Shown here piece after piece: positions 20,976 to 61,122 of a DNA stretch of 64,000 nt; the stretch's first letter is position 1, and every line of letters begins with the position of its first letter. Under the pieces are notes generated by a model. That model searched no databases and was not told the origin of the DNA. It saw only the letters and a list, made by a program, of their open reading frames with translations. Source of the DNA: an uncultured Chryseobacterium sp. (GTDB lineage: Bacteria > Bacteroidota > Bacteroidia > Flavobacteriales > Weeksellaceae); assembly GCF_913778085.1 (NCBI RefSeq), contig NZ_CAJYXJ010000008.1, one strand, 5' to 3'. A program made the position numbers and the translations under genes.

Positions 20976-21298
20976 CTTCTTTGTGAAAATTTGAGCCTGT
21001 AATGGTTATTAGTTTTAGAAAACTTTAATGCTTAAATTTTCCTTTTGTTCTAATGCTGACGTAAAGGTGAGAATTAATCTGCAGAAATACATCCGTACAA
21101 ATACTGAAAATAGATTTACGTATTTCTACGGAGTACCCCATTTAGATAAAATTTTTAGTTTAAATCTTTTATTCAATGGATGAGGATAAATAATTGGAAC
21201 AACGAATATCATTTATAAATACGAAGTAAATACATCGGGTAAAAAACAAAAAATCCGAAGAATAGATCCCCGGATTTTTCGTGTATAAGTAAATTTTC

Positions 21299-21715
21299 TT
21301 AGAAAATCTCTCTTCCTGAAAAATGGAATTGTGCTTCGATAAGCGCATTCTCATCAGAATCGGAACCGTGAACGGCATTTTCTCCGATGCTTCTTGCAAA
21401 CATTTTTCTGATGGTACCTTCTGCTGCTTCAGCAGGATTTGTAGAACCGATTAATGTTCTGAACGCTTCAACCGCATTTTCTTTTTCAAGAACAGCAGCC
21501 ACAATCGGCCCTGAGCTCATAAATTCAACCAATTCCCCGTAGAACGGTCTTTCAGAATGTACTTCGTAGAATTTTTTTGCATCAGCTACTGTAAGCTGTG
21601 TAAGCTTCATCGCTTTGATTTTAAAACCTCCTTCTGAAATTTTCCCTAATATAGCACCGATATGTCCGTCCGCAACTGCATCAGGCTTAATCATAGTGAA
21701 TGTAATGTTAGACAT
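21299..21715 (-). CDS. ndk: Nucleoside diphosphate kinase
   Basis: [25 protein letters not shown]. Confidence 0.97.
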
Positions 21716-21825: not shown

Positions 21826-21840
21826 TGGCACAGGATTTGT
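21826..21840 (+). promoter_or_regulatory. Sigma54-like -24/-12 promoter
   Basis: TGGCACAGGATTTGT (GG-N10-GT); predicted +1 near 21852, next to the start of the repeated element. Confidence 0.65.
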
Positions 21841-21851
21841 TTCTACTATTA

Positions 21852-21920
21852 CGATTCTCATGTTTAATTTGAGTTTTCATGGTTATTAGTTTTTACCCAG
21901 CCTCGGCTGGGTTTTTTATT
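21852..21920 (+). ncRNA. Candidate sRNA, copy 1 (anti-translation-start sequence)
   Basis: 41 bp (21855-21895) identical to 60469-60509; terminator acccagcc-tc-ggctgggt followed by a T run. Confidence 0.7.
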
Positions 21921-22175: not shown

Positions 22176-23102
22176 TTATTTTTGAGAAGCTTCTTCCGCT
22201 TCTTCCATCAGTTTAATATAGGTAGCATATCGGGAATGCTGTATTTCTCCTGTTTCCAGTGCTTCAACGACGGCACATTTCGGCTCATTGATATGAAGGC
22301 AGTTGTGGTATTTGCATTCTTCCCTTTTTCTGAAGATTTCCGGAAAATAATGCTGTACTTCTTCCTTTTCAATGTCGATCATGGCAAATTCGCGTACGCC
22401 GGGCGTATCGATTACATTACCGCCGAAATCCCAGAAATGCATCTGTGCAAAAGTAGTGGTATGCTTGCCTTTCAGATGCGTGTCGGAAATTTCAGAAGTT
22501 TTCAGATTAAGCCCGGGCTGCAAAGCATTGACCAATGTGGATTTTCCGCAGCCGGAATGTCCGAAAAACACAGACGTTTTATCCTGAAGCAATTCTTTCA
22601 GATGATCAAGATGTAATCCTGAATAGGATGAAATTTCCAACGAGCTGTAACCGATTTCGCTGTACAGGAATTCTATATCCTTTACAATTTCTGCTTCTTC
22701 TTCGCTTAGCACGTCCATTTTATTGAACAAAATCAGAGGAGAGATATTATAGGCTTCACAGCAGGCAAGGAACCGGTCCAGAAAACCCAGTGAAGTTTCG
22801 GGATGTTTTAAAGTAAAGATAAAGCAGGCCAGATCAATATTGGATGCAATAATATGGGCTTCTTTAGAAAGGTTAACGGATTTTCGGATCAGGTAGTTCG
22901 TGCGCGGCTCAATTTTCGTGATCCAGGCAATATCGTCCTGCTCAAGCTGAAATTCTACAAAATCACCCACAGCAAGAGGATTGGTAAGACGGGTCTTGAT
23001 CAGTTTAAACTTTCCGCGGATTCTCGCCTCGAAAATTTTTTCGGTTTCCAATTCCAGTACCTGATACCAGCTTCCTGTAGATTTAATGATTTTTCCTTTC
23101 AT
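22176..23102 (-). CDS. rsgA: Ribosome small subunit-dependent GTPase A
   Basis: NKMD, GHSGCGKSTLVN, GKHTTT, DTPG, CKYHNCLHINEPKC. Confidence 0.97.
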   Translation of the reverse strand: MKGKIIKSTGSWYQVLELETEKIFEARIRGKFKLIKTRLTNPLAVGDFVEFQLEQDDIAWITKIEPRTNYLIRKSVNLSKEAHIIASNIDLACFIFTLKHPETSLGFLDRFLACCEAYNISPLILFNKMDVLSEEEAEIVKDIEFLYSEIGYSSLEISSYSGLHLDHLKELLQDKTSVFFGHSGCGKSTLVNALQPGLNLKTSEISDTHLKGKHTTTFAQMHFWDFGGNVIDTPGVREFAMIDIEKEEVQHYFPEIFRKREECKYHNCLHINEPKCAVVEALETGEIQHSRYATYIKLMEEAEEASQK

Positions 23103-58629: not shown

Positions 58630-60120
58630 CTAATTTAATGGTAAAGTAAAATAGAATGTGGAACCTTCATCAACTTTGCTGGAAACTCCGATGTTGCCAT
58701 GGTGCTGCTTGATGATCTCGGAGCAGATGAAAAGCCCGATACCCATTCCCTGGAACTGGAGCGAAGATTCTTCGACACGGTAAAATTTATGAAAAACAGC
58801 TTCCTGCTTATAATCCGGAATCCCGATTCCGAAATCGGTAACGTTTACTTTTACTTCCTGTTCTTCTTCATCCAGAAAGGTTGTGACAATTACCTGGTTG
58901 TTATTCGGAGAATATTTTATGGCGTTGGTAAGGAAATTAATTAAAACCTGCTCAATGCGGATCGCATCAATAGGGATTAAAATATCCGGCAGAATGCCGT
59001 CGCGTTTTATTTTTACTCTGTTTTCATCATGGGTCTGAAGAATCGTATCGATGGCATTGTTGATAACACTCGCAAGATTGGTAGGTTTCCTGGTGATTTT
59101 CAGCTTACCGTTCTCAATTTTGGAAACATCAAGAAGATCGGTGATCAGGGTATTAAGCTTTTCGATCTGGTCCTGGACTTTAGCAACAAATCCGGCCTCG
59201 GTACTTTCTTTATTCAATTTCAGTTTTCTTTCGAGAAGCTGAACATAAGCTTTAATGCTCGTTAAAGGCGTTTTAAGTTCATGGCTGGCGATACTCAGGA
59301 ACTCATCTTTTTCCTTTTCCACTTTTTTCTGATCATCAATATCAGTAAAGGTTCCCACCCAGTTTTTGATGTTGTTTTCCTCATGCACAGGCGTGACGCG
59401 AAGAAGATGATACCGGTAATTTCCTGTCTCTCTGTTCTTAATCCTGACTTCCATTTCTAAGGCTTTGCCTTTTTTCCTGCACCGTTCCAGCTCTTCGCGA
59501 ATTTTGAAATCATCAGGATGTGTTTCAGGGAAATGTTTATCAGACTCCGAGTATTCATACCACTTTACGTTGACGAAATCGACAATTCCATTTTCATTCA
59601 GCGTAAAGGCAATCTGCGGTAGAGATTCCAGCATCAGGTGAAAGTGGTCAATCTGTGATTTCATGGTCACCTGCGATTCCCTTCTACCTTTTACTTCAAG
59701 CTCCAGGCTCTGCTGCGTCTTTTTCATCGCAATGTTCTGTTCCTGCAGATTATAAAAGGTTTTTACTTTAAGGAGAAGAATCTCAGGATCCACCGGCTTG
59801 GTTACATAATCTTTTCCACCAGAGGCATAACCTCTGGTGATAAATTTTTTTTCAGTATTTACTGCCGACAGGAATATAATCGGCACTTCTTTTGTTTTGC
59901 TGTATCCGGCCAGCGTTTCGGCAACTTCAAAACCATCCATGTCAGGCATCTGTACATCCAGGATGATCAGGGCATAATCATTTTTAAGGGCTTTGCCCAG
60001 AGCCTGCTCACCTGAATCCGCTGTGTCTACCTGAAAATCTTTGGACTCAAGCAATTTTTTAAGTGAATAAAGATTACTTTGGTTGTCATCAACAATTAAG
60101 ATCATAGAAACTAAAATCAA
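58630..60120 (-). CDS. REC-PAS histidine kinase
   Basis: LIVDD...DVQMP; PAS-like segment; SHELKTPL, GMGIGL; start may be 60105. Confidence 0.93.
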   Translation of the reverse strand: MILVSMILIVDDNQSNLYSLKKLLESKDFQVDTADSGEQALGKALKNDYALIILDVQMPDMDGFEVAETLAGYSKTKEVPIIFLSAVNTEKKFITRGYASGGKDYVTKPVDPEILLLKVKTFYNLQEQNIAMKKTQQSLELEVKGRRESQVTMKSQIDHFHLMLESLPQIAFTLNENGIVDFVNVKWYEYSESDKHFPETHPDDFKIREELERCRKKGKALEMEVRIKNRETGNYRYHLLRVTPVHEENNIKNWVGTFTDIDDQKKVEKEKDEFLSIASHELKTPLTSIKAYVQLLERKLKLNKESTEAGFVAKVQDQIEKLNTLITDLLDVSKIENGKLKITRKPTNLASVINNAIDTILQTHDENRVKIKRDGILPDILIPIDAIRIEQVLINFLTNAIKYSPNNNQVIVTTFLDEEEQEVKVNVTDFGIGIPDYKQEAVFHKFYRVEESSLQFQGMGIGLFICSEIIKQHHGNIGVSSKVDEGSTFYFTLPLN

Positions 60121-60206: not shown

Positions 60207-60355
60207 GAGTGTTAATATTTATAAAGTTTTATTAAAAAAAAGTCGTTAAAAAAAGTGGAGATATTTCTAATTACAGTATTTCAGCACATTAAGTTTAAAA
60301 AATTAACCTAACATTGTATTTTTAATTAAAATTTTTCTTTTTAAAAAATTATTCA

Positions 60356-60370
60356 CGGCACAGTGTTTGA
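60356..60370 (+). promoter_or_regulatory. Sigma54-like promoter
   Basis: CGGCACAGTGTTTGA (GG-N10-GA). Confidence 0.6.
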
Positions 60371-60381
60371 ATACAAATGGA

Positions 60382-60447
60382 TAACACTTTTTCACTTAAA
60401 TATATTTTTCAAATTTAACCCCTGTTTATGCAGGGGTTTACTTTTTT
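60382..60447 (+). ncRNA. Candidate U-rich sRNA
   Basis: Between the sigma54-like motif and terminator aacccctg-tttatg-caggggtt-tactttttt; no ORF. Confidence 0.5.
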
Positions 60448-60466
60448 GTTTATATATTTGCAGCGA

Positions 60467-60540
60467 ATTTCTCATGTTTAATTTGAGTTTTCATGGTTAT
60501 TAGTTTTTAATCCCCGTCGCAAGCCGGGGATTTTTTTATT
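60467..60540 (+). ncRNA. Candidate sRNA, copy 2 (anti-translation-start sequence)
   Basis: TATATTTG at 60453-60460; 41 bp identical to 21855-21895; terminator aatccccg-tcgcaagc-cggggatt followed by a T run. Confidence 0.7.
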
Positions 60541-60690
60541 TTATGAATGAAGAATTTTCTAAATTTCCTGATATTTCTGTATTGCTTCCAGGTGAATTTT
60601 ATTCATTAAAATATAAATTTCATTTAAAATCATACCGGGTATGGCACAACTTGTGATATAGCAGAGGTACACCATTAATATCATAACACT

Positions 60691-61122
60691 ATGTCGATAA
60701 AAATACAAGTCGCTGTCTGCACAAAATGCAAAGGCTATTTTTCAGCTGCACCTCTAGAACAAAAAAATGCAAATCATCCGGATATTATCGATCATTTTTT
60801 CTATCATGGTGAACCTTGGTTTACTTTAGAATGCAAAACTTTCGAGAAATCAAGAAATATGGAAGATACGAAGGTTGTTATTACTGATCTCGAAGAACAT
60901 ACTAAGAACGATCATAATTACTGTCATTGTAAAAAGAAAGAGGTTTCCGCCCGATTACAGTACTCTTATGAATCTTCTCAACTTGAGAAATATGTCCCTT
61001 ATCTGGAAAAGAATGAGATGGAAACGGAAATTTATTTCAAAGATCTTTACTATACCTATAATAATTTTCATGGTATCGCTGCATCGGGCCACCAGAGGAG
61101 TTCAGGTACGAAATTCCGCTGA
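60691..61122 (+). CDS. Hypothetical Cys/His-containing protein
   Basis: 143 aa; CTKC and HNYCHC; 12 nt before xth. Confidence 0.7.
   Translation: MSIKIQVAVCTKCKGYFSAAPLEQKNANHPDIIDHFFYHGEPWFTLECKTFEKSRNMEDTKVVITDLEEHTKNDHNYCHCKKKEVSARLQYSYESSQLEKYVPYLEKNEMETEIYFKDLYYTYNNFHGIAASGHQRSSGTKFR

Follow-up and report, generated by a model that had tools for sequence, protein, structure and literature searches.

A 41-base-pair (bp) sequence that occurs twice in a stretch of 64,000 nucleotides (nt) from an uncultured Chryseobacterium sp. (contig NZ_CAJYXJ010000008.1; the whole stretch is hereafter the window) marks what comparative sequence evidence supports well as a previously undescribed multicopy small RNA (sRNA) family of Chryseobacterium and its relatives. 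Each copy is probably an independent trans-acting sRNA gene, whose seed would occlude A-rich translation start regions; promoters of different types occur among the paralogues. The reading as an RNA of the plus strand is well supported, and readings as a small open reading frame (ORF) are unsupported, because the terminators are conserved, the promoters stand at a fixed distance, and copies are found in phage contexts.

The 41-mer TTCTCATGTTTAATTTGAGTTTTCATGGTTATTAGTTTTTA is present exactly twice in the window, both times on the plus strand (Table 1). No third copy with three or fewer mismatches was found in the window, and none appeared in 100 shuffles. An earlier note on this DNA had described the identity as stopping at the element's boundaries. 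This is exact, with different flanking bases at both the 5' end (21854 a versus 60468 t) and the 3' end (21896 c versus 60510 t). Copy 1 is intergenic, located between ndk (21299-21715, minus strand) and the gene for the GTPase RsgA (22176-23102, minus strand), and copy 2 is flanked by a hybrid histidine kinase gene (58630-60120, minus strand) and an ORF without assigned function (60691-61122, plus strand; 143 aa, no Pfam family). The promoter motifs claimed for the two copies are likewise in place: a sigma54-type -24/-12 motif precedes copy 1, its TGGCAC-N5-TTG pattern having no other exact match in the window, and a Bacteroidota sigmaA-type -7 box precedes copy 2. Each copy ends, as had been noted, in a G+C-rich terminator hairpin of its own, with a T-tract on the plus strand only. 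The core of copy 1 is predicted to be unpaired in both the minimum free energy and the centroid structure, with the exception of a 4-bp CUCA/UGAG hairpin, and the folding z-score of the whole RNA is -3.2. Its probable 5' end was placed from the promoter spacing.

Table 1 Position of the sRNA copies, their signals, candidate partners and neighbouring features in the window
Feature	Position	Strand	Remarks
Copy 1 promoter motif, sigma54-type -24/-12	21826..21840	+	TGGCAC-AGGAT-TTGT
sRNA copy 1 (class a, ndk/rsgA-linked)	21851..21918	+	predicted transcript ~68 nt; unstructured 41-nt core 21855-21895, terminator stem-loop 21895-21912 + T6, U-tract to 21918
Copy 1 seed block	21873..21894	+	UUUUCAUGGUUAUUAGUUUUU; part retained in every variant
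Copy 2 -7 box, Bacteroidota sigmaA-type	60453..60460	+	TATATTTG
sRNA copy 2 (class c)	60466..60539	+	core 60469-60509, terminator 60509-60532 + T7, U-tract to 60539
Conserved noncoding block between rpe and ndk	20945..21135	-	~190 nt; candidate partner or sponge RNA with anti-seed
Anti-seed site	20988..21016	-	AAAACUAAUAACCAU (21016-21002) + CUCAAAUU (20995-20988)
12-nt complement at FG-GAP/T9SS (type IX secretion system) gene start	13805-13816	-	TAACCATGAAAA; chance level
12-nt complement at TNT-domain gene start	36004-36015	-	TAACCATGAAAA; chance level
Separate small gene directly upstream of copy 2	60354..60447	+	neighbour, no sequence relation to the sRNA family

The 22-nt centre of the core was scanned in a collection of species-representative genomes, the resulting counts being lower bounds. 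It was found in at least 119 genome stretches, the named genera being Chryseobacterium, Kaistella, Epilithonimonas, Cloacibacterium, Riemerella and Bergeyella, while the remaining matches are metagenome bins named to family or higher only. The core is thus conserved across six Weeksellaceae genera, a point the earlier note had put forward for checking, and the minus-strand ORF that it had considered (MKTQIKHE) is not. Several genomes carry at least three to four copies, e.g. C. oncorhynchi (locus L010, L018 twice and L070) and C. cheonjiense (L007, and L074 three times). A census of 150 instances, phage loci included, yielded 146 copies that could be evaluated at the 3' end, and in all 146 a hairpin and U-tract follow directly after ...UUAGUUUUU or ...TTAGTTTTT. 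These hairpins comprise 70 distinct sequences, and the U-tract is confined to the plus strand, the reverse strand being devoid of one. As far as sequence can tell, varied hairpins combined with one-strand U-tracts are the pattern of a functional intrinsic plus-strand terminator, and the proposed direction of transcription is supported accordingly. A search of the whole window against Rfam 15 gave no match at gathering score, and a search of three window sub-regions at E ≤10 returned terminator-driven sub-threshold matches only. The literature on sRNAs of Riemerella, Chryseobacterium, Elizabethkingia and Flavobacterium/RpoN yielded no description of the family or of its sequence.

The same alignments bear on whether the conserved block encodes a peptide, be it the minus-strand MKTQIKHE... 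ORF or a plus-strand mini-ORF (AUG UUU AAU UUG AGU UUU CAU GGU UAU UAG, MFNLSFHGY). The canonical core leaves both frames open and MFNLSFHGY covers the conserved block almost exactly, but third-position variation is absent among the 150 copies, 1- and 2-nt indels occur (L074, L113), and the few substitutions are located in the loop of the weak CUCA-N9-UGAG hairpin. The plus-strand AUG is replaced by AUA, AAG or AUC, or deleted, in L043, L050, L072, L110, L021 and the phage ...CAUUAA... copies, and the minimal phage copies contain no ORF. On the minus strand, which has neither promoter nor U-tract, the two ORFs of the window (25 aa and 14 aa) share eight codons, MKTQIKHE, before continuing into unrelated tails. 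A coding role is hence extremely unlikely.

Four kinds of upstream context can be distinguished (class a, class b, class c and phage), each of which puts the RNA start a few bases from CUCAUG. In class a, to which copy 1 belongs, the motif is TGGCAY-N5-TTG(C/T), with the GG and TTG kept across genera, the 5-nt spacer free, and the full consensus TTGC present in several genera. Synteny of this class also extends across genera: in Kaistella and several bins of the Chryseobacterium group the terminator is followed by the 3' end of rsgA (…KLMEEAEE), which in the window is found ~260 nt beyond the copy 1 terminator. Class b is characterised by TGGCACGATTTTTCAATATA, which contains a good -24 element and a degenerate -12 element. 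Class c, the type of copy 2, has a TAnnTTTG sigmaA -7 box 5-9 nt 5' of the core in 17 copies, and the box TATATTTG is invariant in L041, L050 and L056, the three loci syntenic with copy 2. In 92 copies the distance from the end of a GG-N10 / TGGCAY-N5-TTG(Y)-type motif to CTCATG is 12-17 nt; if the promoter is sigma54-dependent, +1 would fall at about ..GCGAUUCUCAUG. Eleven copies lie immediately 3' of tRNA ends, and degenerate chromosomal copies are reduced to (U)CAUGGUUAUUAGUUUU and a terminator. The notion of a multicopy, differentially promoted family, originally based on the two copies of the window, therefore holds for orthologous copies, in which sigma54-type and TAnnTTTG motifs recur at fixed spacing. 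With the same seed placed behind a sigma54-type promoter in copy 1 and a sigmaA TAnnTTTG promoter in copy 2, different signals would converge on one regulon.

The 22-mer was also detected in 22 IMG/VR contigs, and a further nine contain the 17-nt seed and terminator (31 phage/prophage contigs). These nine minimal copies consist of just TCATGGTTATTAGTTTT followed by the terminator, with unrelated sequence on the 5' side. The carrier phages are temperate, as judged by genes for integrase, endolysin, tail fibre and small terminase. Some of their copies directly follow a tRNA gene and others, within tRNA arrays, follow a spacer hairpin that shows covariation; in a third arrangement the copy overlaps a phage gene's stop codon. 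In L120 the order is tRNA-Phe, copy, tRNA-Cys. Some phage copies form the 3' untranslated end of a gene. Flanks shared with phage contigs were seen for at least four tRNA-linked bacterial copies (L018/L128, L090/L125 and L101/L141, with L077/L123 nearly identical). The seed-plus-terminator cassette is accordingly also carried by temperate phages, where it presumably acts on the same targets as the chromosomal copies.

An element that is multicopy, present in prophages and beside tRNAs, and always fused to a terminator could be viewed as a mobile or structural DNA repeat (akin to miniature inverted-repeat transposable elements or repetitive extragenic palindromes, or a phage attachment core), or as a special cis-acting terminator. 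We consider this very unlikely. The flanks of the copies consist of dedicated promoters at fixed spacing, and neither inverted ends nor target duplications were noticed in the flanks of the listed copies, which were inspected by eye with no repeat search run. Downstream of copy 1 there is no gene in the same orientation for which it could act as terminator or attenuator, because rsgA is convergent. Prophage copies are found 0.5-4 kb inward of the integrase gene, away from the contig boundary, and paired copies are in the wrong order for the attL/attR that insertion into an sRNA gene would leave. The latter idea was tried on two prophage contigs that contain a seed pair 37-39 kb apart, and was rejected, as neither the order of the flanks nor the position of the integrase, which is not adjacent, fits.

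Some further features of the phage loci were observed. The spacers preceding the copy in L120, L122, L125, L126, L129-L131 and L138 form a covarying stem around a conserved loop, GTTAAACTACAGGAAATTGTG. In sequence and in distance to the core, this loop is similar to the class a promoter region (ACAGnAAnTTG), without the GG; the structure may be what is left of a promoter, or a hairpin used in processing. In the prophage tRNA arrays of Chryseobacterium (L018 7000-7650 = L128; L101/L141) there are tRNA-like genes whose acceptor strands match and which have T-arms, together with long internal insertions; ARAGORN does not call these genes. Variable cargo genes are found between the integrase and the sRNA cassette (L133 1156-3931, L139 1216-1728); by the look of the sequence only, these comprise a UmuC/UmuD-like pair, an SOS-response-associated peptidase-like protein and an HNH-like protein.

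Two genes of the window had been proposed as targets, the FG-GAP gene and the TNT gene, on account of 12-nt complements spanning their AUG. The complements are present as described, but with the intergenic site excluded two 12-mer matches are observed in the window versus 1.6 expected from shuffled cores, and RNAduplex energies across 96 window start regions are no better than those of a shuffled sRNA. The matches are thus at chance level and do not identify either gene as a target. As the duplex screen did no better than the shuffled sRNA, candidates were sought by conserved complementarity instead of by energy. Two sites were singled out because they are conserved, one in an RDD-family gene and one in a noncoding block beside ndk.

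The RDD gene (PF06271) is a member of a DUF4403-RDD-Rce1-like operon, for which a PADLOC scan found no defence family. In 21 of 28 Chryseobacterium RDD orthologues, a 12-16-nt perfect seed complement, AAAAACUAAUAACC(A), ends 4-6 nt 5' of the AUG. Pairing over the AUG itself, as earlier proposed, is applicable to some orthologues only, in which AACCAUGAAAA extends over the start codon; the best conserved site is positioned upstream, at ~-18 to -5. A convergent class b sRNA copy is found within ~1.3 kb in 19 of the 21 orthologues that bear the complement, and, with a limit of 3 kb, none of the seven orthologues that do not bear it has a copy nearby.

The noncoding block is conserved in 14 Chryseobacterium loci/species. 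It contains a long covarying 5' hairpin (CCGTAnAAATACG / CGTATTTnTACGG, either half being palindromic itself) and a bidirectional terminator, with a folding z-score of -5.4. Within the block, AAAACUAAUAACCAU is a 15-nt perfect seed complement, longer than any other in the window apart from the sRNA genes themselves (0.05 expected), and its pairing with the seed gives the best non-self duplex of ~16,000 windows (-22.9 kcal/mol, z ~-6). The most invariant stretch of the block is AAACTAATAACCA, and two substitutions within it (A to G, C to U) would preserve G-U pairs with the seed. The block has no match in Rfam, and a search for the CCGTA...TACGG palindrome found none beyond it. A peptide product was considered for the block and rejected, since the conserved ATG after the hairpin opens no conserved ORF.

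On this basis we propose that an RNA of ~65-75 nt would be transcribed from the plus strand, with its 5' end a few bases before CUCAUG, and would consist of a 41-nt U-rich, essentially unstructured body followed by a copy-specific intrinsic terminator. The seed would correspond to the 3' half of the body (UUUUCAUGGUUAUUAGUUUUU) and pair with A-rich initiation regions that lack a Shine-Dalgarno sequence, of the form AAAAACUAAUAACC...AUG. From the conserved complementarity, and by analogy, we infer that start regions would be occluded: pairing in vivo would keep the 30S subunit off the initiation region and so repress translation, a step proposed here and demonstrated for GibS/FopS of Bacteroides.

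GibS is largely unstructured and uses its first 30-50 nt to pair with start-codon regions, in a genus, Bacteroides, that has neither Hfq nor ProQ (PMC7366714). FopS sRNAs are present in 12-15 copies per genome, each a single-stranded stretch followed by a terminator; one member is derived from a 3' untranslated region (3'UTR), the sequence also occurs in a phage, and the RNAs block translation of susC mRNA, including in vitro (PMC11697453). The Bacteroidota start context is A-rich and free of Shine-Dalgarno sequences (PMC6847099). The family described here shares with FopS/GibS a conserved single-stranded region of ~40 nt joined to a variable Rho-independent terminator, multicopy genomes, a 3'UTR-derived member, a phage-borne copy, TAnnTTTG promoters on some members, and a U-rich seed with CAU that is complementary to an A-rich start region. 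The GibS/FopS 5' end, taken from published primers, is GUGUUUUUCAUAGUAUUAG, a 19-mer with wide occurrence in Bacteroidales, and the FopS family consensus is GUGUUUUUCAUAGUAUUAGAUUUAAGGUUAACAAAGGUUGG followed by the terminator. When the Weeksellaceae seed UUUUCAUGGUUAUUAGUUUU is compared with the FopS/GibS R1 sequence UUUUCAUAG-UAUUAGAUUU, 17 of 20 positions are identical (p ~0.03 versus shuffles).

In contrast to FopS, where the seed is the very 5' end and is followed by AUUUAAGGUUAACAAAGGUUGG, the seed is internal here, placed directly 5' of the terminator and after CUCAUGUUUAAUUUGAG. The family furthermore belongs to a different order (Flavobacteriales, Weeksellaceae), most of its copies have sigma54-type rather than sigmaA promoters, and its candidate targets are an RDD-family operon and a noncoding RNA rather than susC genes; no susC-type target emerged from the sequences examined. 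A profile hidden Markov model (nhmmer) built from 57 distinct FopS 5' regions gave no significant match in the window and 1.47 Mb of Weeksellaceae loci, and the reverse profile search, from the Weeksellaceae family to FopS, also found nothing. Because the profiles do not match and the seed block is placed differently, we refer to the family as FopS/GibS-like in its working and not as a demonstrated member. The likeness of the seeds is compatible with common descent and with convergence on an A-rich start context without Shine-Dalgarno sequences, both being possible. A broader view would take the near-identical seeds of FopS/GibS and Weeksellaceae as an ancient Bacteroidota-wide seed-terminator module, spread by temperate phages that append it to tRNA arrays and mRNAs to take over a sigma54/sigmaA-controlled membrane-protein regulon; this we regard as doubtful. 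In a scan with the GibS/FopS R1 19-mer GTGTTTTTCATAGTATTAG (L182-L301), the matches listed include full FopS-type body and terminator beyond Bacteroidaceae, the carriers among them being Prevotella/Segatella, Muribaculaceae, Alloprevotella, Paludibacteraceae and Dysgonomonas bins.

A number of points weigh against the explanation proposed above. No start region inside the window is above chance, and an RDD orthologue was looked for in the 64-kb window and none was detected. The co-occurrence of RDD site and sRNA copy could stem from common descent within one Chryseobacterium clade instead of co-evolution. The strand of the ndk-proximal block is a provisional assignment made from its U-tract, and the class b -12 element (TTTCA/TTTTA) matches sigma54 poorly. 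Finally, a pairing seed of 15-20 nt leaves the invariance of all 39-41 nt across genera unexplained.

Protein binding or a second function may be responsible for this invariance. In Bacteroides, the RNA-recognition motif (RRM) protein RbpB binds FopS and GibS in a sequence-specific manner, and its top motif from crosslinking and immunoprecipitation is 41 nt in length (PMC11697453). Taken further, the RNA might act mainly as a decoy or ligand for a protein, either an RbpB-like RRM protein or the 30S subunit via U-rich RNA with two AUGs, with pairing being secondary. This would account for a block of 39-41 nt that is invariant across genera and paralogues, beyond what a seed needs, but phage and degenerate copies are reduced to the 17-nt seed and terminator, and conserved complementary partners exist. 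A scan of the window for RRM-type RNP1 motifs found none, although such a gene could sit elsewhere in the genome. We therefore judge a mainly protein-binding role to be unlikely, and the occlusion of start regions by a trans-acting seed remains our preferred model.

Similar arrangements are known from unrelated systems. The Qrr1-5 sRNAs of Vibrio are sigma54/LuxO-dependent, Hfq-dependent siblings with four stem-loops. They resemble the present family in being paralogues with an invariant pairing region and sigma54 -24/-12 promoters, and in acting on start regions, but there is no common sequence, the Rfam Qrr model gives no match, and only part of the Weeksellaceae family has sigma54-type promoters. 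The CiaR-dependent csRNAs of Streptococcus and LhrC1-7 of Listeria are likewise multicopy, with a conserved single-stranded region complementary to ribosome-binding or start-codon sequences. These, however, target Shine-Dalgarno sequences under a single regulator, occur in Gram-positive lineages and have no sequence relation to the family. Phage copies that are located behind tRNAs or gene ends and end in a terminator are comparable to the tRNA-trailer and 3'UTR sRNAs 3'ETS-leuZ, CpxQ and SroC, the small stable RNAs of the phage T4 tRNA cluster, and the prophage sRNAs DicF and AgvB/AsxR; by this analogy they would be freed by processing, with the phage providing a regulator of host type. Unlike in these systems, the same seed is here also found in free-standing chromosomal genes.

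Our searches turned up no sRNA family already described for Weeksellaceae, to which Chryseobacterium, Riemerella anatipestifer and Bergeyella belong, and riboregulation in Bacteroidota that lack Hfq and Shine-Dalgarno sequences is known almost only from gut Bacteroides. The family would constitute a second, independent case of the multicopy design in which a long unstructured seed is joined to a terminator. The phage- and tRNA-linked copies, the complementary block beside ndk and the close FopS/GibS parallel all go beyond the earlier note. Three promoter classes on one seed, phage-borne copies and two conserved candidate partners provide comparative handles, which could be used to test whether FopS-type regulation is a phylum-wide feature, what role sigma54 has in the post-transcriptional regulation of Flavobacteriales, and for what reason phages keep host-type seeds beside their tRNAs.

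The surroundings of copy 2 contain additional signals. The separate small gene directly upstream consists of an invariant CACGGCACAGTGTTTGAATA motif (GG-N10-TG, sigma54-like), ~45 nt, and a terminator at 60417-60438 that was identified by a terminator scan. This gene and the copy 2 region are conserved together in L041, L050 and L056, which represent three other Chryseobacterium genomes. A near sigma54 -24/-12 motif, TGGCACAACTTGTG, is located at 60642-60655 on the plus strand, ~35 nt 5' of the ORF at 60691-61122. With TGGCACAACTTGTG included, three GG-N10-type motifs are found within ~300 bp near the hybrid histidine kinase gene.
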